Part shown: in pieces, positions 9,470-61,693 of the stretch | How positions within the stretch are numbered: position 1 is the first letter of the stretch | How the letters are laid out: every line of letters starts with the position of its first letter | Source: Candidatus Latescibacterota bacterium | GTDB lineage: Bacteria; Latescibacterota; UBA2968; GCA-2709665 | Assembly (NCBI GenBank): GCA_965222075.1 | Contig: OZ244937.1 | Coordinates: 4,160,001-4,224,000, forward strand | DNA: 64,000 nt | Direction of reading: 5' to 3' | Notes under the pieces: generated by a model | What the model saw: the letters and a program-made list of their open reading frames with translations, nothing else | What the model was told of the DNA's origin: nothing | Database searches by the model: none | Program-made: the position numbers and the translations under genes

Positions 9470-9483
9470 GGCGTGTCTTGGTT

Positions 9484-14893: not shown

Positions 14894-14931
14894 GTTGCTC
14901 GCAGCGCTCAGCAGAGAAGTGGATTACCGTT

Positions 14932-36259: not shown

Positions 36260-39200
36260 CTACTCCCGCTTTAGTGCGGGAAGCAGTGGGATCCGCATTG
36301 CCAGGTAGGCCGCGGCGGCGCTGGACAGGATGCCGATGAGAAATACCAGCGCCAGGGTGAGCAAAAGCGATGTCCAGGGTACCGACACGCCGGGGGCCAT
36401 CAGGTGGGGGGCGACGGCAAGGAGTGCGGACAGCGCGCCGATGAGCAGGCCGATGAGCAGGAGAAAACCGTTTTCCGCAAGCAGCATGGTGGATAGGGTG
36501 GACCGGCGAAATCCGAAGGCCCGGAGGGTTGCGAGTTCGCCCCGGCGTTCCATCACGTTTCTCAAGAGGATGATTCCCAGGCCGATTGTGCCAAGAACCA
36601 ACCCCAGCCCGCCCAGCGTCTGGAAGGTGGACAGGTAGGTGTTTTCAACGGCCTGATAGCCGGCGAGTTTTTGGGTTGTTGAGGTTGCGTCGTAGCCGAA
36701 ATTTCGCAGCCTGCTTTCCAGAATTGCTGACAGTTGTTCGACATTTTCCGGAGGGGTCTGAACCAGGAAATAGCGATATCCGCTCTGGTTGGAAAAGTGC
36801 TTGAGAAAATTGGATTCGGAAATCAACAGTTCGCTTTGAAAGATGCTTGTTTGCAGGAGCCCGACCAGACGCAGTTTCACTTCCTCGCCCGCACTGTTGT
36901 AAAGGAGGATGTCCTCGCCCAGGCCGAGGTGTAAAATCCACACCACCGAGTTGAAATCCCCGATGGCCGGAAGGACGCCCGGTTCCAGATCTTGTTCAAG
37001 CAACTCCCACGGATTGCCTATCTCCTCTGTTGTCTGCTGAAACCGAAACCCGCCCCGGCGGATGAGTTCGTTGGGGACTCCCAGGACTCGGGGCGTTTGG
37101 GGCCGGTAGAGGTTCAGGCAACTGACATCCTCTCCCGGTAAGGCCCGAAAGGGCAAAATTTGAGCCCGGTTTAAGGTTTCGGCGTCTGCTTCGGAAAACC
37201 CCAGTTCGAACCGTCCCGTTTCGGTATTTAAATCGTGATGCAGGGGGATGTCGGCCTGCGCCACCAGTGCGAATCCCCCCGTACCGGCATCTTTTTCCAA
37301 GAGGGTGCGGCCGGACGGCTCAGCGCGGCGGTTGGCCCCCACGGCGACGATGACGAAGCAGGCGCAGCCGATGAGCGCCGCACAGAGGAGGCTCCGGCCG
37401 GGATGCCGGGCGCTGTTTCTGATGCCGATACGGGCGATACGGGCGACCCCGAATGGGGCGTCCTTTTCTTTTTTTTCACGGCGGAACCACAAAGCGGCAA
37501 AACTCAGTCCGGCAATGAGGAGGAGCGCGCCACTGCCGAAAAATAAGCCCACGGAGGCTGTTGTATCCGCAGCCAGTCCGGCCGCCATCAAAGCCACGGC
37601 CAGCCCCAGGCTGGCAAAAGCGTAGATCTGCGGTTTGCGCCCGGACGCGGAGCGGTCCAGAGTGGTTGCGCCCTCCAGCAACGCACGCACGGGTACCCTG
37701 CCGAGCTGGCGTACGGTCCGCCAGATGGAGAACAGGACGACGGCTGTTGAGATCAGGTATCCCAGGGCCAGGCTGGAGGGGGTCATGTAAAGGGATAAGA
37801 ACGGGGTGCCGACCGCCGACACCCACCAGGTCCGAAGGCCCACGATCATCAGCCACGCATAAAAGGCAGCGCCTGCCAGGCCCAGCAGGCCGCCGGAACC
37901 GGCAAGGATGGCGGCCTCAGACATAAACCGCCTGCGGATTGCCGCAAGCGGGTGACCCGAGGCCAGCAGAATGCCCACCTCTTTCGCCCGCTGCTCCACG
38001 CCAAGGCGGAAGAGCAGGCCGACCAGAAGGGCGGCGGAGACGATGAGGAACTGGCTGAATCCGATAAAGAGCACGCTGAAGTCGGTTGCGCCCGAAGCGG
38101 CGCTTAGGCCCCGAGCTTTGACCGGCTGAAATTCCAGGCCCACCTGTTCGGGACGGATTTTTCTGAGCAGATCTGCTTGAAAATTCGCCAGGGTGGTAGA
38201 TACGTCCAATCCGGGCGAGGCGCCGATCCGGACCGCGCTGATCGTGCCAAATCGACTGCGCCACAACCGCTGGCCTGTTTCCTCCGACACAAAGGCTTTC
38301 GGAGCGGCGCCAAACGTATCCCAGTACGCTTCATCCCGGGAACGTATGCGATTGAGGTCCACAGGGAAAGGCGCTTTCCAGGCCGACATGTTGTCCGCGT
38401 CCTGAATTCCAGGGAATTCCGGGGTCAACTTCGGATCCGCTGCCATGCCCTCTAAGGCCACGGTTCCCTTTAAACGAAATGACGCGCGTCTGGTAAATAA
38501 TTGCTCTCTGGGGCCGACCAGAAAGTACGTGAGTTCAATCCTGTCTTCGACCCGCACGCTTAGATCGTTCGCCGCCCACGCGTTGAGGAGAATTTCATCC
38601 TCACCCAGTTGAGGCACGGGCGAACCATCGGTCAGTTTGAATGTACCGAAGGGCGCAGAGGCGGTGTTTTTTTCCGCCGCTCCGTAGTTCAGCGCTGTGA
38701 CCGTGGAATAGGGGATTTCGCGATCGCCTGCGCTTATGGTGTTGGCCAGGTAGGTCAGAACGGGCAGGAATGGCGTGCGGTGCGTCGATGCGAGCGTTTT
38801 GATGGTTTTTACGATATCGGGCTTGAGGATAAACTGTGTGCTTTCTATGGAGAAATAATCGGGCTGCTCATAGAAGACCAGGCCGATGTCATCCAGGTGT
38901 AGAACGCGGGAAAGGGCCGCCTGCAGATCCTGTGGACGCGTATTTTCATCCCGGCGGGACACCAGGATGGCGTTTACCCGGCCGCGCTGTCCAAGCGTTT
39001 TTTGCAGAACGGGGAGAGAGACGAAGGCATTTAGCGGAAGGCTCTGGTGAGACCACAGGCCGAACCGGCCCATGCCCCGGTCTGGAATGACGTGCGTGAG
39101 GGTGAGGCGGAGGGTCTGAACGGTCTGCGAGGCGCCTTCACGGCCGAACAAGAATTCACGGTGGATGTCGCTTGGCCTTTCAAATGAGAGCAGGATCGGG

Positions 39201-39661
39201 TCGCCCACGTGGGCGTTCAGTTCCTTCTGGAGGGATTGGTTGATGATGACCGGCGGGAAGACCTGATTCTGTTTGCCGGGCAAAAAAAGGCCCGGTTGCT
39301 CTGTACCGGGACCGGGTTTAAAAAGCGCGGCAAACCGATGGTCGATGCCCTGAATCTGGACGCGAGAGGCCCGGGAGCGGGTGCTTGCGTTTACCGCGGA
39401 TCCACCCAGAAAAATGGCGGGCACCGCATGCTTTCCAAAGGCGGATTCGCCGGAGAGGTCGGTCGCCAGTTCGGAGCGGAAAAAGCGCGTTGAGACGAGG
39501 ATGTCGTCGATGCGGCCCAACCGCTCCAGGGAGAGGTTCCGCAGGCTGCCCCGGACCGAATCGCCTACCAGCAATGCGCCGGAGAGCACCGAGGTTGCCA
39601 CGGCTGCACCCAGGACCACCGCGAGGTGGATCTGCCAGAAGTGGGTTAGACTTCGACGCAT
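36260..39661 (-). CDS. Large ABC transporter permease with duplicated FtsX/MacB domains
   Basis: 1133 aa; GALLVGDSVRGSL, EQRAKEVGILLASG and ERRGELATLRAFGF. Confidence 0.9.
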   Translation of the reverse strand: MRRSLTHFWQIHLAVVLGAAVATSVLSGALLVGDSVRGSLRNLSLERLGRIDDILVSTRFFRSELATDLSGESAFGKHAVPAIFLGGSAVNASTRSRASRVQIQGIDHRFAALFKPGPGTEQPGLFLPGKQNQVFPPVIINQSLQKELNAHVGDPILLSFERPSDIHREFLFGREGASQTVQTLRLTLTHVIPDRGMGRFGLWSHQSLPLNAFVSLPVLQKTLGQRGRVNAILVSRRDENTRPQDLQAALSRVLHLDDIGLVFYEQPDYFSIESTQFILKPDIVKTIKTLASTHRTPFLPVLTYLANTISAGDREIPYSTVTALNYGAAEKNTASAPFGTFKLTDGSPVPQLGEDEILLNAWAANDLSVRVEDRIELTYFLVGPREQLFTRRASFRLKGTVALEGMAADPKLTPEFPGIQDADNMSAWKAPFPVDLNRIRSRDEAYWDTFGAAPKAFVSEETGQRLWRSRFGTISAVRIGASPGLDVSTTLANFQADLLRKIRPEQVGLEFQPVKARGLSAASGATDFSVLFIGFSQFLIVSAALLVGLLFRLGVEQRAKEVGILLASGHPLAAIRRRFMSEAAILAGSGGLLGLAGAAFYAWLMIVGLRTWWVSAVGTPFLSLYMTPSSLALGYLISTAVVLFSIWRTVRQLGRVPVRALLEGATTLDRSASGRKPQIYAFASLGLAVALMAAGLAADTTASVGLFFGSGALLLIAGLSFAALWFRREKKEKDAPFGVARIARIGIRNSARHPGRSLLCAALIGCACFVIVAVGANRRAEPSGRTLLEKDAGTGGFALVAQADIPLHHDLNTETGRFELGFSEADAETLNRAQILPFRALPGEDVSCLNLYRPQTPRVLGVPNELIRRGGFRFQQTTEEIGNPWELLEQDLEPGVLPAIGDFNSVVWILHLGLGEDILLYNSAGEEVKLRLVGLLQTSIFQSELLISESNFLKHFSNQSGYRYFLVQTPPENVEQLSAILESRLRNFGYDATSTTQKLAGYQAVENTYLSTFQTLGGLGLVLGTIGLGIILLRNVMERRGELATLRAFGFRRSTLSTMLLAENGFLLLIGLLIGALSALLAVAPHLMAPGVSVPWTSLLLTLALVFLIGILSSAAAAYLAMRIPLLPALKRE

Positions 39662-40317
39662 GTGCCCTCCTGCAGCTCAAAGCGCCGCTCAAAGCGTCCG
39701 GCGAGGTCCAGGTTGTGTGTGACCACGATCAGGATGTTCTGTTCGGCCTGGTGCAGATCGAAGAGGAGGGCGGCGACCTCGTCGGCCCTGGAACGGTCGA
39801 GACTGCCGGTGGGCTCATCACAGAGCAGCAGGCCGGGGTGGTTGATCAGCGCCCGCGCCACCGCCACACGCTGCCGCTCGCCGCCCGAGAGTTCGGCCGG
39901 GCGATGGTCGATGCGATGCGAAAGCCCAACGCGCTCGATCAATTCCAGCGCCCGCGCTTTCGCATCGCCATCGGGCTGTTTAAACGCCAGCGTGGGCACC
40001 AGCACATTTTCCAGAACAGAATACTGAGGCAGCAGGTGGTGATCCTGAAAGACAAATCCGATCACCCGATTTCGAAACCGGGCGAGTTCGGGTTCGGGCA
40101 GCACAAACGGATCTTCGCCGTTGATCTCAAGATGCCCCGACGAAGGGCGGTCCAGCGTCCCGATTACGTGCAGAAGCGTACTCTTCCCCGACCCGGAAGG
40201 CCCCATCATAACCAGCGACTGTCCACCCGCCATTTCAAACGAAATACCGCGAAGAACCTCCACAGGCCGATCACCGCTCCCAAAGCGTTTTGAAATGTCG
40301 GATACCTTCAGTGACAT
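39646..40317 (-). CDS. LolD/MacB-type ABC ATP-binding protein
   Basis: GPSGSGKST, LSGGERQR, DEPTGSLD and VTH. Confidence 0.95.
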   Translation of the reverse strand: MSLKVSDISKRFGSGDRPVEVLRGISFEMAGGQSLVMMGPSGSGKSTLLHVIGTLDRPSSGHLEINGEDPFVLPEPELARFRNRVIGFVFQDHHLLPQYSVLENVLVPTLAFKQPDGDAKARALELIERVGLSHRIDHRPAELSGGERQRVAVARALINHPGLLLCDEPTGSLDRSRADEVAALLFDLHQAEQNILIVVTHNLDLAGRFERRFELQEGTCVEV

Positions 40318-40754
40318 GACGCCCTATCCCCTTCGCCTTCGGGTGCTTCTTCAATCCGCTCCGCAACAGAATCCGGGATCGGAATCGACCTCAATTTCTC
40401 CTCCGGATTGCAGATACAGCACACAGCCTTCAATTCTCCCCGGGCAACCACCTCGCCATCTCTGGTAAAAACGAAGCCATAGGTGATGGACATAGCGCCC
40501 TTTCGCATCACCCTTAACCGGATGTCCAGCTCCTCTTCAAACCGGACTGGATTCAGATATTCGCAGAACGCCGTCAGTCTGGGCCACCCGATCTTGTTGC
40601 CCTCCCATTGGGTAGAAACGCTCGTCCCCAGCGAACGTAAAAACGCGTGCTCGGCAGCCTCCATAAAAACAAAAAACCGGGCAAAGTGTACAATGCCGGC
40701 CATGTCCGTATCGGAAAATTCGACCCTGCGCTTTGTATAATACTCGTAAGGCAT
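40308..40754 (-). CDS. 4HBT/YbgC-type hotdog thioesterase
   Basis: VEFSDTDMAGIVHF. Confidence 0.9.
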   Translation of the reverse strand: MPYEYYTKRRVEFSDTDMAGIVHFARFFVFMEAAEHAFLRSLGTSVSTQWEGNKIGWPRLTAFCEYLNPVRFEEELDIRLRVMRKGAMSITYGFVFTRDGEVVARGELKAVCCICNPEEKLRSIPIPDSVAERIEEAPEGEGDRASCH

Positions 40755-40782
40755 ACACCGTTTCCTTCATCCAGACGCTCGT

Positions 40783-41283
40783 CTACGATCCGGGCCTGAA
40801 CAGCGTAACGAGACATCCTCCTACAGCCGCCAGTAGAATACCCGCTACAAACTGCCAGTTCAAACTGCTCAGTCCCCCGGCAGGAGGATGCAGCGCCATT
40901 GCTACAACCGCATTCACAACCGGCGCTCCGGCAAACACAATTGACATCACCACCGACGGTGTCCCCTTTGCCCCAAACGCCAACAAGACGCCGAATGCGC
41001 CCAGCGCCCCTGCAACGCCTGCAAGGGTGGACCACGTCATGCCCTTCGCCGTAAAGGACCACGAGGCGCCCTGAACGGCCAGCACGATAAGAGAGCCGAT
41101 CACCGCCGTTAACAGGTAGGCCAGTCCAACAAAAAGGAACGCTTTGTACCGTCCGTTTACCGCATCCCCCATCGCCATCTGTCCCGTATGCAGCAAAACG
41201 CCGTACAGACCCCAGGAACAAACGGTCATCATCGCAAAAACAAGCCAGGTCAAACCCGGTGATGAAACATCTTCGGTCAGCAT
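40783..41283 (-). CDS. Five-TM DMT/EamA-like membrane protein
   Basis: WGLYG and VMSIVFAGAPVVN; AGGAGG RBS. Confidence 0.7.
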   Translation of the reverse strand: MLTEDVSSPGLTWLVFAMMTVCSWGLYGVLLHTGQMAMGDAVNGRYKAFLFVGLAYLLTAVIGSLIVLAVQGASWSFTAKGMTWSTLAGVAGALGAFGVLLAFGAKGTPSVVMSIVFAGAPVVNAVVAMALHPPAGGLSSLNWQFVAGILLAAVGGCLVTLFRPGS

Positions 41284-41345
41284 CGAAAACCCTCCTGAGA
41301 AAAATTTCAGACCTTTGAGCCATCCGCCGTAGGGACGGATGGTTT

Positions 41346-42632
41346 TCACACATACATCCTGTAAACTCCCAGCGTTGCCTCGGCCATCACCTCGTCTCCA
41401 AATGCCCGGTGCACCACCTCCTTACCTTTCCGCCCCAGGGCTTCCCTGTAGTCTGCATCTTTCATCAGTTGAAGCATGCCTTCTGCAATCGCACCCGGAT
41501 CATCCGGCTCCACCAGGATGCCGCCACCGGTCTCCTTGATAAGCTCGGGAAACGCCCCATGTCGCGGTTGTACCACAGGCACGCCATTGGCAAGCGCTTC
41601 TAAGACAAACAGCCCCTTGGGCTCTTTGTAGGGCGTTGGCACGGACAAAACATGCAGACCATTGAGAAAATCGATCTTTTGTGTGCGGTCGACTTCCCCC
41701 CGGTGATCAAACGCATCGGTTAGTCCCCAGGCATCGACCTGGTCCACGATCTTCTCAAAATAGGCCCGATCTCTCCTGCCCAGGTAACCTGCGACCTTGA
41801 GCCGAACGTGCTCTGCGCCGACCTCCTCCGTTAACCGGCGAAACGCTTCAACCAGCAGATGGAGGCCCTTTTCGGGACAAATGCGGGCCAGGTATCCCAC
41901 TGTAAAAGGTGCGTGATCCAAAGGTCTCCGGCTCTCTCCATGACCTTTCAGATTCAGCCCCAGCTTGACCACATGGATTTTATCGCCGGGAACATTCAGA
42001 TAATCCGCCATAAAATCGGCGTAGTATTGGCAGGGCGCGATAAACCCATCCATATCCACGGCCCGATCCCGCAGGAGCGCAAGCGTCCTCGATCTGTACG
42101 GCTCGACCAATCCCTCCAGAAAGATATCCTCTCCCTGAAAGGCACACAGCACAGGAACCCCCAGCTCCTTTTTGAGTTTCCAGGCCATTCCCGAAAACAT
42201 GGAATTGGTCAGCTGTACGATATCCGGACGGTAAACCTTCTTCAACCATTGAACCAGCTTCGCCAGCTCCTTCTTCTGCGCCCCCGCTTCCCCCTCCAGC
42301 ACGGAAACCGTAAGGGCGCCCAGGTCTTCGGCGCGAGCCGCACCGCTGAAGCGGGACAACCCCTTCAAAAGCGCCGGCCGATCCAGCACCCGATCCAGGG
42401 TCCAGGGTGTATGCCGGAACAGCGCGATCTTCTGCTGGAGATATACATTTATCCCACCATAAAAAATCTGACCGATGCTCACATCCGGTTCATCGGTGCG
42501 AAGGGGCGTATAGGTAGGCACAAGCGCAACTTCCGCCCCTTTTCTTTGCAGGGCCGCCGCCAGTGTATTATCGTGGATACAACTGCCGCAGTACATCCCC
42601 GCAGCGCCCGCAGCAATATAGGCGATTCTCAT
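41346..42632 (-). CDS. GT4-family glycosyltransferase with an N-terminal CxxC
   Basis: GAAGMYCGSCIHD, ARICPEKG and EPKGLFVLEALANG. Confidence 0.9.
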   Translation of the reverse strand: MRIAYIAAGAAGMYCGSCIHDNTLAAALQRKGAEVALVPTYTPLRTDEPDVSIGQIFYGGINVYLQQKIALFRHTPWTLDRVLDRPALLKGLSRFSGAARAEDLGALTVSVLEGEAGAQKKELAKLVQWLKKVYRPDIVQLTNSMFSGMAWKLKKELGVPVLCAFQGEDIFLEGLVEPYRSRTLALLRDRAVDMDGFIAPCQYYADFMADYLNVPGDKIHVVKLGLNLKGHGESRRPLDHAPFTVGYLARICPEKGLHLLVEAFRRLTEEVGAEHVRLKVAGYLGRRDRAYFEKIVDQVDAWGLTDAFDHRGEVDRTQKIDFLNGLHVLSVPTPYKEPKGLFVLEALANGVPVVQPRHGAFPELIKETGGGILVEPDDPGAIAEGMLQLMKDADYREALGRKGKEVVHRAFGDEVMAEATLGVYRMYV

Positions 42633-42664
42633 ATTAATCGAGGGGAAACGTGTTTTTCACGGTC

Positions 42665-43918
42665 TCACTCCAGACGCCACAGAGCCAAGGTTGAAATATC
42701 TTTGACGAAAATCTGTCTTCCCAGCACAGCCGGATGGGCCCACGTCGGGCTGTCGGCCACCGAATATCGAGCAACAGACTCAAATCCCCTGGCACTTTTC
42801 TTAACCACAACCAACTCGGCCTCGGTCGTCAGACAGAACATCACCTCTCCGGCGCCAACAAGCGCAGCGTTTTTACCCTGCCGTCCCTCGCTCGTCCAGA
42901 GCATCGATCCGGTTCGAGCGTCCAGACAGAAAAATCGCCCCTTGCGTTTGTGGTCCAGCCCAAATAAAAGGTCATCGCACAGGACCGGCGAACTCATATA
43001 CATCGAAACCTCTGCGTTATGCCAGACCTGTTCGGTTGACCATGTATCGCCATCCCTGGTAACTTTAATCGCCGTTGTCCCCCTGTCCAGACCTGAGAAA
43101 ATCACCGTCTCCTCGAACACGACCGGCGTCACGATATTCTGGTCCCACGCGGTTGTAAACGGAATGCTCCAGAGCAACCGGCCTGTGTCTAAAGCAACCC
43201 CCACACAGTAATTTTGCGTCTGGGTCACCACCTGTTTTGTGCCTCCAAACACAGCCACAATCGGCGAGGTGTATGCCGGGCCGTCCCCGTCCCAGCGCCA
43301 TTTCACATCTCCGGTCTCCGCGTTAAAAGCCATCAGTGCGCCCTGGTCGTGCCCCCCAACGTGCGCGATCAGCATACGATCTGCCACCAGGGGCGACATC
43401 GCTGTGCCGTAAAGGGGTGAGGTCTTCTCAAATCGACTCGAAAACGCGTGACGCCACTTCAGCTTGCCCGTACTGGCCTCAAAACAGGATAAAATGCCGC
43501 TGATCCCCAGGGTATAGAGCTTCCCGTTGTGGAACACAGGTGTCGACTTCGGCCCCTTGCCGTGTCCTCTTGCAGCCGAATTCATACGATAAGGCGCCCG
43601 ATAGCGTTCCTGCCAGATCAACCGACCCGAATCCAGAGAGAAACAGGAGGCCGCCTCCTGCCCTTCCAGACGGGAGTGCAGATAGACCTTTTCACCCACA
43701 ACAACCGGCGATGCGTGTCCCGTTCCAACCGGTACCTTCCATCCAAGCTTCAACGAATCCGGCCAGACCCCCGGCATCGAAACCGATTTCGCCACCCCAT
43801 CCCGATTCGGGCCCCGCCATTGGGGCCACATACCCTCAGCAGAAACGCGTCCCAACCCCACCGCACCCACGCCCCACATCCAGGCGACCGTCCACGCGAT
43901 CACACGCAACCGCTTCAC
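42665..43918 (-). CDS. PQQ-binding-like beta-propeller protein, secreted; start uncertain
   Basis: Signal peptide, WPQWRGPNRDG and repeated A/DxxTGxxxW. Confidence 0.85.
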   Translation of the reverse strand: MKRLRVIAWTVAWMWGVGAVGLGRVSAEGMWPQWRGPNRDGVAKSVSMPGVWPDSLKLGWKVPVGTGHASPVVVGEKVYLHSRLEGQEAASCFSLDSGRLIWQERYRAPYRMNSAARGHGKGPKSTPVFHNGKLYTLGISGILSCFEASTGKLKWRHAFSSRFEKTSPLYGTAMSPLVADRMLIAHVGGHDQGALMAFNAETGDVKWRWDGDGPAYTSPIVAVFGGTKQVVTQTQNYCVGVALDTGRLLWSIPFTTAWDQNIVTPVVFEETVIFSGLDRGTTAIKVTRDGDTWSTEQVWHNAEVSMYMSSPVLCDDLLFGLDHKRKGRFFCLDARTGSMLWTSEGRQGKNAALVGAGEVMFCLTTEAELVVVKKSARGFESVARYSVADSPTWAHPAVLGRQIFVKDISTLALWRLE

Positions 43919-43919
43919 G

Positions 43920-46476: not shown

Positions 46477-46501
46477 AAGTTCTCAAACGCACCGTTCGTC
46501 T

Positions 46502-47860: not shown

Positions 47861-48983
47861 CGTTCTGCCTTTCGCCGAAACAGTATAAAATGCCATCTAC
47901 CGAACCGATCACCAGCTTCCCGGCCGCAACGCTTGGGGAAGCCACAATAGATGATCCTGTTACAAACGTCCAATCCGGTTCGCCTGTAAAAAGACCAAGC
48001 GCCAGGATCGCCCCGCCCATTGTGCCCACAAAGATCCGATTCCCAACAATCACAGGCGAAGAATCAATACGCGACCCCGTTGCATACGTCCACAACGGCT
48101 TCCCGGTTTGTGGGTCCAGCGCGTGGACCATCCTATCCCGCCCGCCCACAACCACCCCGCCAGCCGTCACTGCGGGAGATGCGTAAAATGGAAACCGCCG
48201 CTTTGGATGCTCATATTGCCAGAGAACCTCCGACCGCTCCAGATCGATACACAGAACCTGGTTCCCAAACGTACCCACATATGCCCGACCGTCCAGCACA
48301 GCCGCACTGGCCCCCACATAATCGCTCAACTCCACCTGCGTCTGCTCTGTGCCGTCCCGAATATTGACAACGCGCAAGTACCCATCGCACCCTGCAATTA
48401 AAGTCCTCCCATCCACAACCGAGGGCATGCCGTGAACAAAACCCTCCGTCTCCAGTTTCCAGATCAAGGCCCCATCTTTCATAGAAAGACAGTACAGATA
48501 CTGGTCGTAGGAGCCAAACAGCACACAGTCCCCGCCAGAATTCGCCGAAGAAACAATCCCCCCCTCTGTGCGAAACGCCCACTTACCCTCACCCGTCCGG
48601 GCGTCTACAGCGTGAAAATTACCCCCCTCATCCCCGAAATACACCACATGGTCGAATACGGACGGAGAAGACTTAATCTCGTCGGACGCCTTATATTTCC
48701 ATTTCAACTTCCCACCGGCAAGCTCGATGGCGTACAGGAAGCCGTCCAGACCGCCTACAAAAACCGTTCTTTCCCAGATTGCGGCCGTCGACTCAATCCC
48801 ACCTCCGACCTCTGTGGTCCAGAGCAGGCGCAAACTATCTGGCAGATCGCTTTTAGAAACGCCTGTTAACCGGGCATCCCCCCGGAAGCTGGGCCATTTA
48901 TCCTGCCCGTAGCCGGCCTGGACAAAAACCAGAAAAACCAGCAATCCGCACCCGGAGCGTACTTTCGACAAGGTATCCACCAT
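47853..48983 (-). CDS. PQQ-binding-like/BamB-like beta-propeller protein
   Basis: Signal peptide, WPSFRGD and regular SSP...G...W repeats. Confidence 0.85.
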   Translation of the reverse strand: MVDTLSKVRSGCGLLVFLVFVQAGYGQDKWPSFRGDARLTGVSKSDLPDSLRLLWTTEVGGGIESTAAIWERTVFVGGLDGFLYAIELAGGKLKWKYKASDEIKSSPSVFDHVVYFGDEGGNFHAVDARTGEGKWAFRTEGGIVSSANSGGDCVLFGSYDQYLYCLSMKDGALIWKLETEGFVHGMPSVVDGRTLIAGCDGYLRVVNIRDGTEQTQVELSDYVGASAAVLDGRAYVGTFGNQVLCIDLERSEVLWQYEHPKRRFPFYASPAVTAGGVVVGGRDRMVHALDPQTGKPLWTYATGSRIDSSPVIVGNRIFVGTMGGAILALGLFTGEPDWTFVTGSSIVASPSVAAGKLVIGSVDGILYCFGERQNDE

Positions 48984-48986
48984 TGC

Positions 48987-50129
48987 TCAGTAAACCGCTT
49001 CATAAAGCTGTAAAAAATCACCCTCGGTCACCCGACGCGGGTTAAACGTCCCCGTCCACTGCCCGGCGGCTTCTTTCGCCAGCAGAGGCAAATCGCCTCT
49101 CTCAATCCGGAAATCTCTCAGACATTCGGGCAACCCCGCCGTGGCCTTCAACCTGACAATGCGGTCAACAAGAAGAGCCACACACCTCTGTCGGTCTGCC
49201 TGGGCCCGATGCGCAGCCAGACCCTCATAAAGCCCTGCTTCCACCTGGCCGTTGAACCGGATCACCACAGGCAGCATAAGTCCCACCGCAATCCCGTGCG
49301 TCATTCCATATCGGGCTGTCAGGGGATTTGCGCACGCATGGGCAGCGCCCAGCATAGAATTCTCGATGGCTGCGCCGGCCAGATGAGCTCCCAGAAGCAT
49401 CTTCCCCCTGGCCTCAACGGACGCCGGTTCGGACAAACTTATCTCAAAACTCCCTTCGAGCAACTCCCATGCACGCAGGGCGAACATCTGCGAAACAGGA
49501 TTCCTCCGCGTTGAAACATAGCTCTCCAGAGCGTGGGAGACGGCGTCCATACCGGCAGCGGCAGCAACGGATTTCGGCACGCTCTCTGTCAGAACGGGAT
49601 CGAGAATCACCGCCCAAAATCGCGCCTTCACATCCCCGCACGCCATCTTCTGGTGGGACGCTTCCCGGGCGATTAGCGCATACGACTGCGCCTCACTGCC
49701 CGTCCCCGCAGTTGTCGGAATCCCGATCGATGGAAGCATGGGCTGGACTGCCTTGCCCATACCCCAATAATCCTCCATCTTCCCGCCATTGGTCAGAATA
49801 AGATTGACCCCTTTGGCGCAGTCCATCGCACTGCCCCCCCCCAGCCCCACAATCAGATCGACTTCCCCCTGCGCCTTCGCAAAATGCACCCCCGCTTCAA
49901 CATGCCGTGTGGTCGGATTCTCTTCCGTACCCTCAAAAACGCAAACCTCCAGGGATGCCTGCCTCAACGACCGAACCGCCCGCTCCACAATACCCACCTT
50001 CACGATCCCCGGATCGGTAACAATCAAAACACGCCCACCACCCAGTTCTTCCACCAGATCTCCCAGTCGGTCTAAGGTACCTTCACCAAAAATCACCCGT
50101 GTGGTAGGCTGGAAATCGAAAGGTTGCAT
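48987..50129 (-). CDS. Iron-containing alcohol dehydrogenase
   Basis: GGGSAMD, PTTAGTGSE, DAVSHALE and GAAHACANPL...HG. Confidence 0.92.
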   Translation of the reverse strand: MQPFDFQPTTRVIFGEGTLDRLGDLVEELGGGRVLIVTDPGIVKVGIVERAVRSLRQASLEVCVFEGTEENPTTRHVEAGVHFAKAQGEVDLIVGLGGGSAMDCAKGVNLILTNGGKMEDYWGMGKAVQPMLPSIGIPTTAGTGSEAQSYALIAREASHQKMACGDVKARFWAVILDPVLTESVPKSVAAAAGMDAVSHALESYVSTRRNPVSQMFALRAWELLEGSFEISLSEPASVEARGKMLLGAHLAGAAIENSMLGAAHACANPLTARYGMTHGIAVGLMLPVVIRFNGQVEAGLYEGLAAHRAQADRQRCVALLVDRIVRLKATAGLPECLRDFRIERGDLPLLAKEAAGQWTGTFNPRRVTEGDFLQLYEAVY

Positions 50130-50166
50130 AGAAGTTCAATTCAGGAGATTTTGACCCTGATGCGCC

Positions 50167-51594
50167 CTACGCCCGCTTCGCCCACTGCAGCGCCCGCTGT
50201 CGGTAGAGATGCTCGAACAAATTCCCTTCGTGAGGCTGATCCCAGGAAACATGGGTGGTGGGAATGGGCCCCACATTCAGGCGTTCCACATCCGGAGAGC
50301 CCAACAGCGCGTCGATCAATGCGCCGTCCTCCGTAAGCGCGGTCACTGCGAGACTTGGGCCGATCCGGTCCAGGATCTCCTCCTGGGGCGCTTCGACCAC
50401 ACTGACAAACGGGAACAGGAATTCCGTATTGGCCAGGGGGTGTTCGGGGTCTTCGCACCAGATCACCGTCGGATTCAAAAAGGTACATCCCGCCTTCTCA
50501 ACCACCCGATCCGTCCCCCTGAGCCCAACCGTCAGGTCCACGGCGCCGGGAACCTTAAGCTGGCTGTCGATCAAACCGGAAAGCCGTCGGGCAAATTCGG
50601 GCCGGGTAAACGCGGCAATCTGCGCCTCCGGATCATCCAGCGGCCGGGCGGTAATCTGGACCAGGCACTCCGCCAGCGCCTCTGCGATCTCACGGCCATG
50701 TCCGGGCACCCATACACCGGACGCATTGATACAGGACCTGCCGCCGTTTTCGGCGATAGAGGCCACCATCACATCCAGGCCATCTTCCCATGCCGAAACC
50801 CGATCGGCCCCAATAATTACCTTGCTCCGCCCCGGCCCGTGAATCTGCACACGGGGATCGGCCTCCCAGGGCGCCACTGTCGGTCCGCCGCCAAACAGCA
50901 GCGACCGCCCGCAGCGGAGTAAAAGTTCACCTGCCCCTGCATGGTCCGTCGGATAAACCCCGAATGCCTCCGGCGGGCAGCCCGCCGCAATAAACGCCTG
51001 CGCAATGCGAAACGGCGTCCAGGGCTCCTCGCTGCCGGGCTTGAGAACAAGCGGTACTTTTAAAGGAATCGCAGGAATCCAGAGAGAATGCACCCCGGGC
51101 GAGTTGCTGGGCAGCACGGCGCCCAGGGCTTCGGTCTGGCAGACGTAGCTCAAAGGCCGTTCATTTTGAACCTTCCACCCTTCGTCCAGCACAGAAAGAT
51201 CGAGCCCGCGCGTCAGCCCGTCCAGAACAGCCTCCATCTCTTCGGAAACCAGGCGGATCTTATCCATATTCTGCCGGCAGAGAGATTCAGGCATACCCGT
51301 CGTCCCCGACACCTGCCGACCGTAATCTTCGGGCGACTGCGCATCCCCGTCCAGCGGCAAATCCGCCTCCATAAAAAGCCGGGCGGCCCGTTTACAAATC
51401 CCCAGCAGTTCCGAAACACCGTAAGCCTCAAGCGCCCGCTTATTGGACGCCGCCGACAGCAGATCCTTTGCCACCAGCCCGCGGTTGGCCTGACTGACAG
51501 CCCCCAGGGGTTCCCCGGTCTGAACGTGTGAAACATGGGCTACACTCAAACTCCTGTAAGCCCGCCCGGCCCGTAGAATTGGGAGGTGTACCAT
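50167..51594 (-). CDS. ALDH-superfamily acyl reductase (GriD/EhpG/LuxC-like)
   Basis: LPSNSPGVH, LKPG, NGGRSCINAS and EFLFPF; HGPGRSK replaces the ELGG general-base motif. Confidence 0.8.
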   Translation of the reverse strand: MVHLPILRAGRAYRSLSVAHVSHVQTGEPLGAVSQANRGLVAKDLLSAASNKRALEAYGVSELLGICKRAARLFMEADLPLDGDAQSPEDYGRQVSGTTGMPESLCRQNMDKIRLVSEEMEAVLDGLTRGLDLSVLDEGWKVQNERPLSYVCQTEALGAVLPSNSPGVHSLWIPAIPLKVPLVLKPGSEEPWTPFRIAQAFIAAGCPPEAFGVYPTDHAGAGELLLRCGRSLLFGGGPTVAPWEADPRVQIHGPGRSKVIIGADRVSAWEDGLDVMVASIAENGGRSCINASGVWVPGHGREIAEALAECLVQITARPLDDPEAQIAAFTRPEFARRLSGLIDSQLKVPGAVDLTVGLRGTDRVVEKAGCTFLNPTVIWCEDPEHPLANTEFLFPFVSVVEAPQEEILDRIGPSLAVTALTEDGALIDALLGSPDVERLNVGPIPTTHVSWDQPHEGNLFEHLYRQRALQWAKRA

Positions 51595-51613
51595 AGCTAA
51601 ACGTATTCCTGAT

Positions 51614-52702
51614 TTAATACACTCCCACCACAACGGATTCCTGAAGTTCGGAAAGAAGCCTCAGGTTGCGCACGCCGTCCCAGGGGTAGGGCTCGATCGG
51701 TTCTGCCCGTTCCGCTTCATCCCGTTCTAAAAATCGCGGCATAAAAAACTCTTTGGTCAGCGTCGTCAGCATCACCCGGCCCGTTTCGCCGTAATCCACA
51801 GGTTTGTCGGGATTGGCGGGATCTACAAGCTCGATAACCGCTCGAGGGCAGGGTGAATAGTAAATAATCGCGTAATCATCTGCAGGATCAAACGGCTTGG
51901 AGTGCGCCAGCCCCATCAGCGTGTTCCCGTACGTGGGTACAAAATCAACGCCTGGAACCAGCTCTTCCCGGGCAAAGCGGTGAAATTGGGCATTCATCTC
52001 TGTGCCGCCGCAAAAAATCCCGGCGATGCCCACCTTCTCCAGCGAGACTTTTTCACACAGGGCTTCCAGCAGCCTGGGGGTAGTGAAAATGCACCGGATA
52101 TTGTCATTGGCTCTTAAAATCGTCAGCGCCTGATCAATCACGTGGGCCTTGTACGTATCCATCTCCTGAAGCTTGCCATGCCCGATCAGCTTATTCACCC
52201 ACCGCGGGTCCAGATCCACCAGAAAGCAGATCCCCCCCCGGATCTGGGCCAGGTACTCAATCGCAAGGCGCAGCCGCCGCGGCCCGGTCGGCCCCAGCAT
52301 CAGCCAGTCGCTCCCCCTGGGAAACCCCTCCTCCGACAGGTGCTCGCTGAACATCTCGTAGTCGGTCTGAAAATCGTGAATATTAATCCGATACTTGGGC
52401 ACCCCGGTGGAGCCGCCCGTTTCAAACACATAAACCGGTTTATCGGCAAGCGCCCGGGGCACCCAGCGCCTCACGGGCCCGCCGCGCAGCCACTCGTCCT
52501 GAAAATGGCCCAGCGCCTTGAGGTCGCCGTACCCGCCGATCTCTTTGCACGGGTCAAAATCGAGGCCCCCGGCAAATTCCAGCCAGAACGGACAGCCGGT
52601 CTCCGGACTGAAATGCCACTGCACGATGTCACGAACGTGGGCATCCAGCTCCTGGCGTGCTTTTTCAACCTTCTGGGATAAGGTTCGATCTAAGATCTCC
52701 AT
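51614..52702 (-). CDS. EhpF/GriC-like truncated adenylate-forming enzyme
   Basis: WHFSPETGCPFW, ETGGSTGVPK, PTGP, DLDPRW, GGTE, YGETG, ERD and C-terminal GVY, matching my recollection of EhpF. Confidence 0.78.
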   Translation of the reverse strand: MEILDRTLSQKVEKARQELDAHVRDIVQWHFSPETGCPFWLEFAGGLDFDPCKEIGGYGDLKALGHFQDEWLRGGPVRRWVPRALADKPVYVFETGGSTGVPKYRINIHDFQTDYEMFSEHLSEEGFPRGSDWLMLGPTGPRRLRLAIEYLAQIRGGICFLVDLDPRWVNKLIGHGKLQEMDTYKAHVIDQALTILRANDNIRCIFTTPRLLEALCEKVSLEKVGIAGIFCGGTEMNAQFHRFAREELVPGVDFVPTYGNTLMGLAHSKPFDPADDYAIIYYSPCPRAVIELVDPANPDKPVDYGETGRVMLTTLTKEFFMPRFLERDEAERAEPIEPYPWDGVRNLRLLSELQESVVVGVY

Positions 52703-52722
52703 TCAACCCCCAACCGTCAGTC

Positions 52723-52771
52723 AAATTGCGGATTGCAGAATAAAGGGTTTTCAATCCGCAATCCGCAATTG
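52723..52771. repeat. Intergenic palindrome (AATTGCGGATTG...CAATCCGCAATT), REP-like or RNA-stabilising hairpin
   Basis: Inverted repeat with a tandem CAATCCG unit, inside the operon. Confidence 0.55.
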
Positions 52772-52774
52772 TCT

Positions 52775-54238
52775 TTACCGGCCTCTGTCTTCAATCGCAA
52801 AAAGCGTATTGCGGCCCCCAATATAAAGCACCCCGTCTTTTGCCACAGGCGTGGTGTATACGGCGCTGCCCATGTTCACTTCATAAAGCAGCTCCAGCTT
52901 TTTGCCTACCTTCAAGACGGCAACATCCCCGTCCTCGTCTCCAATATAAACCTTTCCGTCGGCCACAAACGGCGATCCCCAGATTGCGGCAAACGTGTCG
53001 TACTTCCAGTGAGATTTGCCCGTCTTGACATCCAGGCAGTAGACAAACCCGCTCAGATCCGCCGCGTAGAGCAGGCCGTCGTGAATGGCCACGGTAGACA
53101 TCGTCCGGTTAAAATCCTGCCCCCCAAAATGCCACACCGTGCCGCTCCCGGTCACATCCCCTTTGCCCGTCGCGTCGATCGCCCACAGGTGGCCGACGCC
53201 TTCTCCGTGCTCGGGATCCTGTCCCACACCGATAAAGACCTTGTTGTCGTACACAACCGGCGTTGCAACAATGTTATTGCGCGTTCCCCTTCCGCCCAGT
53301 TCCCAGACCGACTCCTTGGGATTGCAGTCAAACTTCCAGATCAGCTCCCCCGTCTCAGGCTCTAACGCATAAATCCACCCATCTCCCCCTGGAAAAATCA
53401 CCTGCGGCTTGCCGTTAATCACCCCGTAGGCCGGATTGGACCACTGCCCGTGCAGGATATTTTCTCCGGGAAGGTCCTTTTCCCAAACGACCTCACCCGT
53501 CTTCGTGTTGACCGCAATAAAACTCGGCGCAAACGGGGAAGGAATGTGGAAATGCCCCTCGTCTACCCCGTTGCTGGTCACCACAAATAGGAGGTCGCCT
53601 GCGCCGACGGGGGAGCAGGTGGCCAAGTTGTGCGGGAAAACCTCCAGCTCCGCCATCATGTCCAGCTTCCAGATCATATCCGCACCGATGTCGCTCGTAT
53701 CGGCTTCCGCTTTGAACGGCCCGTCGTTCTCACCATCCCGGAATCCCTCGGTATCCACACACACCACCTCACAGCGATTGGAGATATAATACAGCCGATC
53801 CTCCTCCACATAAGGCGTTGAGCAGATCCCCTGCTGGGGCCAGTCGTTCACCCGTCCGGCAGCCAGCTTCGTATGCGTGGACTGCCAGAGAAACCGGCCG
53901 TCCGCCTGCCGAAACGCCATTACAACGCCGCGGTCGCCCGTGAGTTTGGGGTCCCGTAAGCCCTGGTTGTTCGTGCCCACAAAGATTTTACCGCCCACAA
54001 TCACGGGCCCCGCATACGTCTGGGACCCCAACACTTCTTTCCATTTAATATTCTCCCCTGTAGCGGGGTCCCACTTTGTCGGCAGGCCTTTCTCGTCAGA
54101 GACCAGATTGCGATCAGGCGTGAAGCCCCACATCGCAGCCTCCTGGGCAGCGGCCGCCGGCGCAATTGCCAAAACTGTTACCACTGTGACGTAAGCAAAC
54201 AGAAAAATATTCCCCATCGGGATGCGTTTAGATTTCAT
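52775..54238 (-). CDS. PQQ-binding-like beta-propeller protein
   Basis: Signal peptide, LPTKWD, LGSQTY, HGQWSNP and TGxxxW repeats. Confidence 0.85.
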   Translation of the reverse strand: MKSKRIPMGNIFLFAYVTVVTVLAIAPAAAAQEAAMWGFTPDRNLVSDEKGLPTKWDPATGENIKWKEVLGSQTYAGPVIVGGKIFVGTNNQGLRDPKLTGDRGVVMAFRQADGRFLWQSTHTKLAAGRVNDWPQQGICSTPYVEEDRLYYISNRCEVVCVDTEGFRDGENDGPFKAEADTSDIGADMIWKLDMMAELEVFPHNLATCSPVGAGDLLFVVTSNGVDEGHFHIPSPFAPSFIAVNTKTGEVVWEKDLPGENILHGQWSNPAYGVINGKPQVIFPGGDGWIYALEPETGELIWKFDCNPKESVWELGGRGTRNNIVATPVVYDNKVFIGVGQDPEHGEGVGHLWAIDATGKGDVTGSGTVWHFGGQDFNRTMSTVAIHDGLLYAADLSGFVYCLDVKTGKSHWKYDTFAAIWGSPFVADGKVYIGDEDGDVAVLKVGKKLELLYEVNMGSAVYTTPVAKDGVLYIGGRNTLFAIEDRGR

Positions 54239-54275
54239 CTCTCACCTCGGTGAAATTGAAGATCGAATATTGAAT

Positions 54276-56489
54276 TCAATCTTCAATAACCTTGATATTA
54301 TCGTAGTATATCTCCGCCGGCGAATACCCATACAGCCCCGGGCTCCCTTCCCGGTTGGGCAGCGGGTCTTCCGCCGTAATCGTCCAGGCCCCGGGCTCGG
54401 GGTCGGAGGTCCGCCAGACCTTCCCCTTGACAATCGCTTTCTCGCCGACAACATCCACCTTCAACTTCATCGTATACCACACATCCGGGTCCCACTGAAA
54501 GTCGATCGTCTTGGCCATCCTCAGATCCGACGTCCAGGAACGGACCTGCAGCCGCTGGTGGTTGCCCATCATATCCAGCGTATAGCGGTTGGCGATCAAC
54601 CCCATATCGGAACGCCTCCGTCCCCTTTTGGCGCCCATCAGATCGGCCTGAATCGTGTAATTCGCCATACCGGGCGGGCCCAGATAAACATTGGAACGGT
54701 TTAACCCCCGTCTTACCGGCGCTTTGACCAGCACCTTGTTCCCGTCCTTCACCTTAACCAGAAACTTGGTCCCTGCCCCCACCCAGTGGGAGGGATTCTT
54801 GTCCACCTCAACCGATTCAAAGTCTTCAGACCACGGCAGAGGAGGCACAACCCGAACCCGTGCGGCCCCTTTTAAATCTCCCACCTGAGCAAAAAGGAAG
54901 CCTGCTTGCGCGCCCCGTTTTTTATCCGGCGTAAACCGTCCTTTCTCACCCATCTCTCCCAACAGCCCTTTGAGCGACCACGCGGCGTTCACCCTCCGTA
55001 TAAATCTTCCCTGAGCGTCAAAAGTCCGCACGCTGAACCGAACCGTCTCGCCCGGGCGAACCAGAACCTCCGCAGGGACGACCCGGATGGTGGCCGGTGG
55101 GGCGTTCCGATCGGGTCTCCTTCCAGCACCCGCCATCGCTTTGGAGGGTATAACGGTGAATTCGGCCTTTTTGTCGCCCAGGCAGTAAAGCCCCTCTTCT
55201 GTTGTAAAATAGATCCGCCCATAAGCAACCGCAGGCGACCCGTAGATCTCCGCAGGGCGTCCACCGGGCAACTTGATTTTTTCTTTATCGAGCGCTTTGC
55301 CGGCATCCTTCCCGGCTTGAACCACCTGAAACGCACCGTTCACTTCCGTTACGTACAACTTTCCATCCGCCCACACCGGAGACCCCTTGCCCACCGTACC
55401 GACATTGTAATGCCAGTAAACCGTGCCATTTTCGGCATCCAGACAGTGAAGGTTCGCCGAATTGTCGACAACATAAAGCCGCCCGGCGTGCACCACCGGC
55501 GAGGCATACCCCACCATACACTCGTCGTAGCGCCAGGCTTCGTGCGTTTTGGTCACATCGCCCGTCCCGGTTCCATCAATGCACACCACCCGTCCCATGG
55601 ACGTATTGTCCAGATTCTCTTCGCTGTGGGCCGCATACACCCGGTCCCCGTCCACCACCACCGAGGCATTGATGCCGCGCTTGCTAAGCTGGAATCCCCA
55701 CACCTTCTCTCCCGTTTGCACCTTAAGCGCATAGATCGCGCCATTCGCATTTCCGGCAATCAGGAGCCGCTGCCCGTTGATCACCGCCACAACCGGTGTG
55801 GAGTACGTGGTATCCTTTGGCGGCCCCCCCGGTGTCGAAATCCAGACCACCTCACCCGTCCGTTTATCAAACGCATAATAACGGTGTCTGCCCGGCACCT
55901 GGTCTCCCCAGCTGGAATTGAGAAAACTGATAATCACAAGGTCGCCGTCCACAAACGGCGTATGGACGCGCCCCCCATAACCCGAAATCCGACCCAATTC
56001 TTCGGTTAAAGAACGCGACCACAAGATATTGCCGTCTCTGTCAAAACAGAAAAACAGCCCCCCGATCCCGTGGGCATATACATTCCCGGTTTCAGGATCG
56101 CCGGCCGGACTCGCCCAGCCCACGCGGTTAAAAGGAATGGTCGTGTGAAAAACGTTGAACCGGTGCTCCCAGAGCAATTTTCCGGTCTCGGCGTCAAAAC
56201 AGGCGACCCGTTCCTGCTCGGTGATATCTTTGCCGATTCGCCCGATCGCATACACCCGGCCGTTGAGCACAACAGGTGTGGAACGGCCGATAAAATCCGC
56301 CTTCCAGATCAGGTTTTCGTCCTCTAAAGACCAGTTTGAGATCAAACCCCTTTCCGGGGAAACCCCGGTTTGCAGGGGGCCGCGCCAGTGCGGCCAGTCT
56401 GCGGCCAGAACGCTCTGACAGCCAGCGCTCCCCACCAGGTGCAGGCAGAGCGAGATACCGATCATCTTAAGTGTAATTTGAGTTCTCAT
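54276..56489 (-). CDS. PQQ-binding-like beta-propeller protein with extra C-terminal Ig-like and jelly-roll domains
   Basis: Signal peptide, DWPHWRGP, propeller repeats and a C-terminal GSPGLYG...YYDNI segment. Confidence 0.85.
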   Translation of the reverse strand: MRTQITLKMIGISLCLHLVGSAGCQSVLAADWPHWRGPLQTGVSPERGLISNWSLEDENLIWKADFIGRSTPVVLNGRVYAIGRIGKDITEQERVACFDAETGKLLWEHRFNVFHTTIPFNRVGWASPAGDPETGNVYAHGIGGLFFCFDRDGNILWSRSLTEELGRISGYGGRVHTPFVDGDLVIISFLNSSWGDQVPGRHRYYAFDKRTGEVVWISTPGGPPKDTTYSTPVVAVINGQRLLIAGNANGAIYALKVQTGEKVWGFQLSKRGINASVVVDGDRVYAAHSEENLDNTSMGRVVCIDGTGTGDVTKTHEAWRYDECMVGYASPVVHAGRLYVVDNSANLHCLDAENGTVYWHYNVGTVGKGSPVWADGKLYVTEVNGAFQVVQAGKDAGKALDKEKIKLPGGRPAEIYGSPAVAYGRIYFTTEEGLYCLGDKKAEFTVIPSKAMAGAGRRPDRNAPPATIRVVPAEVLVRPGETVRFSVRTFDAQGRFIRRVNAAWSLKGLLGEMGEKGRFTPDKKRGAQAGFLFAQVGDLKGAARVRVVPPLPWSEDFESVEVDKNPSHWVGAGTKFLVKVKDGNKVLVKAPVRRGLNRSNVYLGPPGMANYTIQADLMGAKRGRRRSDMGLIANRYTLDMMGNHQRLQVRSWTSDLRMAKTIDFQWDPDVWYTMKLKVDVVGEKAIVKGKVWRTSDPEPGAWTITAEDPLPNREGSPGLYGYSPAEIYYDNIKVIED

Positions 56490-56578: not shown

Positions 56579-56607
56579 ATAATATCCTGTATCACAGCGG
56601 AAATCAA
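56579..56607 (-). promoter_or_regulatory. Putative sigma-70 promoter of the 15-gene operon
   Basis: Minus strand TTGATT-N17-TATTAT, about 90 bp upstream of the ATG at 56489. Confidence 0.5.
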
Positions 56608-58089: not shown

Positions 58090-58115
58090 GTGTTGGCTTT
58101 ATCAGAGGAACACCG

Positions 58116-60564: not shown

Positions 60565-60590
60565 TTGAATAACTCCCAGTATAAATCTGT

Positions 60591-60658
60591 CTTGACGGAT
60601 TTTTGAAATAAAAAAAACGGCAATTCCGCCAATAGAATGGCGACAGCCCTCTATCGGT
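60591..60658 (-). terminator. Possible intrinsic terminator or structured intergenic RNA
   Basis: Minus strand AAACGGCA...TGCCGTTTTTTTT with an internal CCGATAGA/TCTATTGG stem. Confidence 0.4.
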
Positions 60659-60709
60659 TTGAGAAGAAATGCCGTTTGGAACGTGCTTAGAAGCTCGTCA
60701 GGGGTGATG

Positions 60710-61690: not shown

Positions 61691-61693
61691 TTC

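Follow-up and report, generated by a model that had tools for sequence, protein, structure and literature searches.

What do fifteen clustered genes of a Candidatus Latescibacterota bacterium make, and why do four propeller proteins of the pyrroloquinoline quinone (PQQ) type accompany them? The genes lie in the window analyzed here, a stretch of 64,000 nucleotides (positions 4,160,001 to 4,224,000 of contig OZ244937.1, assembly GCA_965222075.1), where they run on the minus strand from position 56489 to 36260 and are numbered g01 to g15 in the direction of transcription. A preliminary description, made from the letters alone, had taken them for an orphan operon whose product, possibly a halogenated, glycosylated aromatic, might serve PQQ-like propellers. 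We found that the operon is a conserved core, consisting of a GT4 glycosyltransferase, a LolD/FtsX transporter, and propellers of the g06 and g02 types, to which an exchangeable module is added. A dispersed propeller family is coupled almost exactly to this one gene core, a relationship that is new here. The explanation that we favor, while giving it somewhat less than an even chance, is that a reduced small molecule bearing a sugar tag is made by the operon and loaded, as cofactor or ligand, onto dispersed, likely periplasmic propellers of the PQQ type.

Joint presence was scored by searching the same genomes with an alignment of the EhpF-like protein encoded by g03 (A3) and an alignment of propellers (A2, g10 plus 14 operon paralogues). 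In the operon's own phylum (140 genomes), 91 genomes contained both, none contained EhpF only, seven contained the propeller only, and 42 contained neither. The 81 genomes of Acidobacteriota were divided into 23 with both and 58 with neither, with no discordant case, and the 121 genomes of Verrucomicrobiota into two with both, seven with the propeller only, and 112 with neither. Over the three phyla (342 genomes, the center genomes G000, G141, and G143 being positive by choice), the propeller family was present in 116 of 116 EhpF-positive genomes and absent from 212 of 226 EhpF-negative ones, as expected if operon presence tracks the propellers, the check that the preliminary description had proposed. 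Joint losses recurred inside the genera designated g7, g9, and g15 (labels of genera, not of genes; genomes G058, G062, and G081), and in genus g3 the losses left one and three matches to PF13360 versus 17–35. No GT4 orthologue was found in five joint-loss genomes (G058, G062, G081, and two of genus g3). All 10 propellers listed in genome G305 and all 11 listed in G267 are far from EhpF, and the window's genome has several copies outside the operon. Because joint losses recur within genera and most copies lie far from the operon, the coupling exceeds linkage.

Conservation of the gene set was followed through g07 (46502..47896), a HemN-like radical S-adenosylmethionine (SAM) enzyme with at least 590 relatives, the best 80 of which came mostly from Poribacteria and Latescibacterota, and also from Acidobacteriota, KSB1, and Verrucomicrobiota. 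Within 10 kb of g07 at these 80 loci, orthologues (at least 35% identity) of g06 were found 75 times, of g05 66, of g08 57, of g09 52, of g04 36, and of g03 24 times; the outer genes, undercounted since flanks end early, followed with 21 (g02), 17 (g11), 14 (g01), 13 (g13), 13 (g14), and 12 (g12). Gene order was that of the window in all relatives, small swaps aside. The co-conservation presupposed by the preliminary description was thus observed, the cluster being kept in order in Latescibacterota, Poribacteria, Acidobacteriota, and Verrucomicrobiota; Planctomycetota were seen only as the commonest taxon of some Atlas clusters. The relatives' operons contain extra genes, coding for propellers at 32 of the 80 loci, a TAXI binding protein at 27, a TonB-dependent receptor at 18, and an SSS symporter at 10. 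Vitamin and cofactor operons likewise carry importer genes such as those of TonB-dependent receptors, and the TonB receptor, SSS, and TAXI genes therefore fit the cofactor reading. Orthologues of the SSS symporter and the TonB-dependent receptor were not found in the window's genome. At G000:C1:3481644-3485898, a propeller paralogue sits immediately upstream of a TAXI-TRAP pair, and the binding protein of this pair shares 64% identity with its counterpart inside Poribacteria operons.

The 14 genomes with the propeller family and no EhpF revealed how the operon is built. Five exceptions tested in the own phylum gave generic HemN-like matches only, while five tested in Verrucomicrobiota had no halogenase and kept a g02-like propeller. 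The idea that all propellers need the halogenase module failed in Verrucomicrobiota on account of these five propeller genomes. A different operon, module B, contains propellers, an NHL protein, a Tat-type NapG-like ferredoxin, a NapH-like membrane Fe-S protein, a NuoEF fusion, and a NuoG/GltD-like protein (loci L089, L094, L099, L102-L106, and L120-L128). The order NuoG/GltD-like, g06, GT4, LolD, FtsX recurs in it, and in genome G024 too, with g06 directly before GT4 in eight loci. A NapH-like alignment built from three exception genomes was used as the module B marker and run on the own phylum and Verrucomicrobiota (261 genomes). The marker was present in 4 of 140 genomes of the own phylum and 7 of 121 verrucomicrobial ones, all of them EhpF-negative and propeller-positive; it is carried by 11 of the 14 exceptions, and none of the 261 genomes had both markers. 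Orthologues of g11 and g15 were found in 12 of the 14 exceptions (all 11 with module B, and G024), and genomes G136 and G137 gave one propeller match each, without g11 and g15 orthologues.

Since 11 genomes keep GT4, LolD/FtsX, and propellers together with the Fe-S module and without EhpF, the 15 genes do not form a single fixed pathway, which is what the preliminary description had made of them, nor a self-contained cluster for a halogenated metabolite. The core also persists without the halogenase module, so the shared product cannot depend on halogen, and a halogenated aromatic is unlikely as a universal product. Among 80 metagenome loci fetched around an acidobacterial-type GT4, the 38 that spanned at least 9 kb contained EhpF in five cases, EhpG in seven, LolD/FtsX in nine, and a DMT gene in five, while none of g05, g07, g08, g09, and g13 was found within 10 kb in these 38 loci, the whole genomes not having been searched. 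Of module A, EhpF/EhpG is the most tightly attached part, and the halogenase block is attached more loosely. In the genomes with module B, PaaK gave only generic 35–38% matches (3/5), and the DMT gene was found in none of five by a search run without a positive control. Three verrucomicrobial loci (L089:11227-16149, L099:1708-8665, and L101) contain, beside propellers, genes of a terpenoid type: a DUF116-polyprenyl-synthetase fusion, a prenyltransferase-repeat gene, a squalene-hopene-cyclase-like gene, and two further genes. In the type-A genome G141, a secreted-looking squalene-cyclase-repeat protein is followed by three tandem propellers (L091:2484-7691). A requirement of module B for terpene-cyclase genes was rejected, as a cyclase-like gene occurred in two of four B genomes and also in type-A G141.

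The mutual exclusion of A and B in 261 genomes, both modules being reductive, could also be understood if they were two routes for low-potential electrons to the periplasm, a reading to which we assign a low probability, about one chance in five. Module A would then supply a diffusible aryl acid/aldehyde/alcohol shuttle, reduced by g03–g05, exported, oxidized by the propellers, and retrieved by SSS/TRAP importers, and module B a wire of NuoEF, the NuoG/GltD-like protein, the NapH-like protein, and the Tat-exported NapG-like ferredoxin. The carboxylate-type importers within A operons, and the linkage of EhpF/EhpG to the core, the tightest of any part of module A in acidobacterial-type loci, agree with such a shuttle. 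Electron transfer leaves the shared GT4 and ATP-binding cassette (ABC) transporter of type VII without a role, however, and the window's genome lacks the SSS and TonB-dependent receptor orthologues.

The core glycosyltransferase, g11 (41346..42632), has an invariant N-terminal CxxC, with Cys15 and Cys18 kept in all 66 sequences compared, whether from A or from B. The LolD-like ABC ATPase g14 (39646..40317; ABC_tran) and the duplicated FtsX/MacB-type permease g15 (36260..39661) have the features of a type VII ABC transporter, i.e., a LolD-like ATPase with an FtsX-type permease whose first helix is followed by a large periplasmic domain. Ten hydrophobic segments and two large periplasmic domains were counted in g15, and its Cys848 is invariant. 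According to the accessible part of PMC12646458, transporters of type VII are able to pull out a hydrophobic molecule and hand it over to a partner in the periplasm, and YbbAP-TesA resembles the operon in having a LolD-like ATPase, one large duplicated permease, and a co-encoded periplasmic partner, which in the operon is a candidate one. Here a propeller would take the place of the esterase, and a sequence search of the PDB with g15 gave no YbbP match, only weak C-terminal matches to MacB and YtrF. The candidate partner is g06 (47853..48983; 376 aa), a core PQQ-type propeller in which Gly198-Cys199-Asp200 is invariant in 33 of 33 sequences. A predicted complex of the g15 periplasmic domains with g06 scored 0.49 versus 0.01 for the best control, with contacts agreeing to at least 83% and a partner predicted local distance difference test (pLDDT) value of at least 84. 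This hints at an interaction; the mark used was passed by 116 of 157 solved pairs and 2 of 215 mismatched ones, and passes at or below 0.60 (18 of the 157 solved pairs and both mismatches) are more often wrong than right unless the pair is likely beforehand.

The product may instead be an envelope glycolipid or amphiphile (a fatty or aryl alcohol glycoside), extracted by LolD/FtsX in the YbbAP manner, with the propellers acting as carriers or structural binders rather than as cofactor enzymes; we regard this, too, as improbable, on a par with electron transfer. In its favor, type VII systems handle hydrophobic cargo (PMC12646458, in its accessible part). The structural proximity of the propellers to BamB and the polyprenyl-synthetase and squalene-hopene-cyclase-like genes that adjoin verrucomicrobial propellers also speak for it. 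On the other hand, g03 groups with EhpF, the known relatives of which use aryl acids as substrates, the operon has no acyltransferase or acyl carrier protein, the system is lost cleanly from whole genera, and tens of dispersed paralogues are not easily accounted for by a lipid.

EhpF/EhpG, from the D-alanylgriseoluteic acid pathway of Pantoea, and GriC/GriD, from that of grixazone, are two-protein aryl-carboxylate reductases. Residues 19–362 of g03 (51614..52702), the adenylating subunit and module A marker, align with EhpF (3hgu), the sole PDB match (E 1.5e-49). The next gene, g04 (50167..51633), codes for the EhpG/GriD-type subunit with an aldehyde dehydrogenase (ALDH) fold; its Cys301, aligned to the ALDH catalytic Cys, is invariant in 36 sequences, and His occupies the position of the general-base Glu, a combination that we take to mark an acylating or reducing ALDH type. 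A truncated ANL homologue that covers the EhpF length is thus adjacent to an ALDH-fold partner with the catalytic Cys, as in EhpF/EhpG-type reductases, whose genes are likewise adjacent in the phenazine cluster table seen in PMC11278526. Unlike the Ehp and Gri clusters, the operon has no phz or amino-hydroxybenzoate genes and is tied to GT4, the ABC transporter, and propellers; no phenazine or grixazone core scaffold gene was found among the 15 genes or the recurrent neighbors. The EhpF-like family of g03 comprises at least 8000 clusters, and the operon's EhpF is single-copy and 77–86% identical across many lineages, in contrast to the ~36% identity of the homologues on Streptomyces plasmids; these distant EhpF homologues were all that the plasmid searches gave, with GT4 remaining without a match. 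In genomes G135, G138, G139, and G140, the EhpF-like match lies inside open frames of 833–835 aa, possibly an EhpF-EhpG fusion, and at G317:C2:728795-729869 the EhpF-like gene is split in two by a frameshift or an assembly error.

The remaining module A genes code for an iron-containing alcohol dehydrogenase (g05, 48987..50129; Fe-ADH in Pfam and NCBIfam), the radical SAM enzyme g07, a PaaK-like acyl/aryl-CoA ligase (g08, 45187..46476; NCBIfam), a short flavin-dependent halogenase-family enzyme (g09, 43920..45233), a five-helix membrane protein (g12, 40783..41349), and a 4HBT/YbgC hot-dog thioesterase (g13, 40308..40754; Pfam and NCBIfam). With its HemN-like fold, CxxxCxxC at 83–90, and HemN_C domain, g07 has the sequence features of a class C radical SAM methyltransferase and is likely one; it stays below the NCBIfam cut-offs for HemN (190/325 bits), HemW (176/205), and HutW (176/400), and the genome contains a separate paralogue at 27% identity. 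For the propellers, g07, g08, and g09 alike, no named equivalog of NCBIfam scored above its cut-off. No Pfam match was obtained with g12, which has five hydrophobic segments and look-alikes among DMT/EamA proteins. The designation of g09 as a halogenase was upheld by its catalytic signature (GxGxxG, Lys92, WFWYIP), the Lys and the WFWxIP motif being invariant in 17 of 17 aligned sequences. Lys92 aligns with Lys76 of CndH, presumably the catalytic Lys, and in the PDB sequence search g09 was closest to short carrier-type halogenases. Its short form, GxGxxG, Lys, and WxWxIP are shared with the carrier-dependent flavin halogenases CndH, PltA, and Bmp2; the operon differs in having no carrier protein.

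The intact halogenase signature and the patchy distribution would suit a cluster that makes a halogenated small molecule as a secondary metabolite, with the propellers as accessory or resistance proteins. The adjacency of g08 (AMP-binding) and g09 (halogenase) is that of the Halo_AMP pseudoclass of sponge clusters (bioRxiv 10.64898/2026.08.03.742642), and g08 matches BagE/FevW, below the NCBIfam cut-off, which is the commonest A-domain match in the accessible text of that preprint. As described there, Halo_AMP clusters of Acidobacteriota, Latescibacterota, and Poribacteria frequently contain PQQ-like domains, glycosyltransferases, thioesterases, radical SAM proteins, and TonB receptors (10.64898/2026.08.03.742642), and the preprint probably includes the operon's cluster. 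Halo_AMP is a search rule, however, not a characterized system, such clusters are read there as natural-product pathways with halogenated peptidic products, its focus CC A has P450s that the operon lacks, the reductase is not mentioned, and the words aldehyde, FtsX, propeller, and cofactor are absent from the accessible text (10.64898/2026.08.03.742642). The term orphan accordingly survives in part: no match to a characterized cluster was found, while the accessible text of this 2026 preprint lists, for the same phyla, clusters with halogenase and AMP-binding genes in which PQQ-like domains abound. A secondary metabolite is in our estimate quite improbable, with EhpF single-copy and highly conserved across many lineages, the core persisting without halogenase, and distant propeller copies vanishing together with the operon.

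The same flavoprotein raises the question of whether the enzymes modify the propellers themselves, by glycosylation or by formation of a protein-derived quinone through a QhpG/LodB-like reaction. NCBIfam matches of g09 to QhpG (151 bits) and LodB (110 bits), both below the cut-offs, and the invariant Cys of g06 and g15 are what such a scheme could build on. The halogenases score higher, with 204 bits for CmlS and, in the PDB, up to 229 bits versus 23 bits for the QhpG structure; no conserved small precursor ORF (open reading frame) was shared within 500 bases upstream of g01 in 15 loci and the window, and module B has no such flavoprotein. We hold protein modification to be very improbable indeed. 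Secondary metabolism and protein modification are the least fitting readings.

Of the four propellers, which the preliminary description gave signal peptides, g01 (54276..56489; 737 aa, with a C-terminal extension of ~300 residues and orthologues at 33–82%), g02 (52775..54238; 487 aa), and g06 have a clear hydrophobic N-terminal stretch (2.0–2.5 versus at most 1.64 in nine cytoplasmic controls), and g10 (42665..44035), of the expanded WPQWRG family, is borderline (1.57), its true start being probably downstream of 44035. The value was at least 1.8 in 68 of 69 related sequences scored. As judged by such a stretch before the mature domain, rather than by a signal-peptide predictor, the propellers are likely exported. 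All four fall below the NCBIfam cut-offs for PQQ alcohol dehydrogenase (TIGR03075, 39–86 bits, cut-off 480), BamB (TIGR03300, 58–149 bits, cut-off 285), and the Acido-empty-quinoprotein group A (TIGR04528, 38–66 bits, cut-off 650). The structure model of g02 is a confident propeller (pLDDT 93.7) without a close solved relative. Its VIA Z scores were 33.1 for YxaL (root-mean-square deviation 2.2, 310 aligned), 28–30 for BamB, 28.4 for tetrathionate hydrolase, and 26.6 for PedH, and fold searches gave general propeller matches only (9–25% identity). Four His residues of g02 (203/229/263/344), kept in 39–44 of 54 sequences, may form a metal or ligand site. The g02 family (1346 clusters at 50% identity, E at most 1e-30) includes homologues fused to BlaR1/M56 (13 of 30 scanned) and Ser/Thr kinases (5 of 30), which suggests use as a sensor domain and fits ligand sensing. 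Further fusions of g02-type propellers with WD40, caspase, and FGE-sulfatase domains were seen (P0124-P0247).

How could these parts produce and load a ligand? In the scheme that we favor, g08 would activate an aromatic acid as a CoA ester, g09 would halogenate (or oxidize) it while tethered, g13 would release it, and g07 would methylate it. The acid would then be converted to the aldehyde by g03/g04 at the expense of ATP and NAD(P)H, and the aldehyde to the alcohol by g05, after which g11 would add the sugar and g12 move the product across the membrane. Finally, g14/g15 would extract the product from the outer leaflet and pass it to g06, which would hand it on to the other propellers, a loading step modeled on YbbAP-TesA. 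The order of the steps is a guess. In module B, the NADH-to-Fe-S electron chain would supply the reduction in place of module A. PQQ and mycofactocin are cofactors whose operons come with a dependent paralogue family, and the case studied here is similar in that one operon strictly co-occurs with a dispersed enzyme-like family and includes importer genes; it differs in having no precursor peptide or pqq genes, a radical SAM protein of the HemN rather than the SPASM type, and a swappable module. A more specific version is distinctly less probable than the general one. In it, the product would be an undescribed glycosylated redox cofactor serving a whole superfamily of "empty" PQQ-like enzymes in the periplasm of Acidobacteriota, Latescibacterota, Poribacteria, and the Planctomycetes-Verrucomicrobia-Chlamydiae (PVC) group, and it would be made or reduced by one of two alternative modules, an aerobic one of enzymes or an anaerobic one of the Fe-S type.

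Several points weigh against a loaded ligand. Module-B operons have no biosynthetic enzyme besides GT4, leaving the source of the aglycone unexplained, and the main gap is that module B brings electrons and no scaffold enzymes, which keeps the electron shuttle and glycolipid alternatives open. One protein family could also have been put to two separate uses in A and B, which would then exclude each other only on account of the oxygen requirement of A. Genomes G024, G136, and G137 have propeller matches and neither the A nor the B marker. As to the coupling, the propeller profile was built from operon members, its cut-offs differed per phylum (1e-25, 1e-40, and 1e-60), propeller copy numbers are those among the matches listed, and related genomes are not independent, so that Fisher values overstate the association. 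As to the propellers, the vicinal Cys pair of PQQ alcohol dehydrogenases is missing from all four (no CC), they are at least as similar to BamB, YxaL, and tetrathionate hydrolase as to quinoproteins, and the invariant residues of the expanded (g10-type) family are mostly Gly, Trp, and Pro.

Most of the architecture given in the preliminary description was reproduced. Computation of the ORFs gave 15 co-oriented genes, and the 14 junctions, measured from the longest starts, were 37, 72, −20, 37, 3, −44, 25, −47, −116, 32, −4, 28, −10, and −16 bases, i.e., gaps of at most 72 bases and overlaps at 7 of 14 junctions. Pfam and NCBIfam returned the families named in it (four PQQ_2, AMP-binding, Aldedh, Fe-ADH, Radical_SAM with HemN_C, PaaK-like, Trp_halogenase, GT4, 4HBT, ABC_tran, and FtsX) and detected no polyketide synthase, non-ribosomal peptide synthetase, carrier protein, terpene synthase, or pqq gene among the 15 genes. 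The single promoter-like site did not hold up: the σ70-like TTGATT-17-TATTAT (56579..56607, minus strand, ~90 bases upstream of g01, 9/12 matches) is one of eight such sites versus 5.2 ± 2.5 in shuffled sequences, no more than chance, and promoter and terminator scans of the sequence likewise gave counts at chance level. In a sponge metatranscriptome, 8 short pieces matched the operon at 99% identity and 11 matched a neighboring 20 kb; these are contigs without strand or level and are uninformative on co-transcription. The divergent di-haem DHOR gene (56839-58089) was rejected as an operon part, being absent from every other fetched locus; together with the MORN-repeat protein gene that follows it (56839-58928), it was not seen beside the operon elsewhere. 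Further away in the window are a low-GC block (58981-62749, 46–47%) with genes of a galactokinase-like GHMP kinase, an unassigned hexapeptide-like protein, and an inositol monophosphatase, and a region (1-16000) of ~51–53% GC versus 59% for the genome, with many short minus-strand ORFs, possibly an acquired island.

By the sequence tests applied, the system lies outside the phenazine, grixazone, PQQ, BamB, and quinoprotein families, its parts belonging to known families. Our literature search, which left most subscription journals outside, found neither the core nor module B described. PQQ-repeat genes of Poribacteria are mentioned in the accessible part of PMC3909097, nothing relevant to the operon was found in that of PMC6644159, and term searches of the accessible supplements of PMC10632474 and PMC12283558 for essentiality gave nothing on operon genes.

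Few unexplained protein families of abundant soil, marine, and sponge bacteria have expanded as much as the PQQ-like propellers, which are routinely labeled BamB. Their near-exact dependence on one gene core means that propeller function can be tested by deleting just one gene. Should the product prove to be a cofactor, it would take its place beside PQQ, F420, and mycofactocin; a shuttle or a lipid would still mean a new pathway of the envelope. The split into core and module is also a warning to genome miners that such halogenase clusters may not be sponge natural-product pathways.

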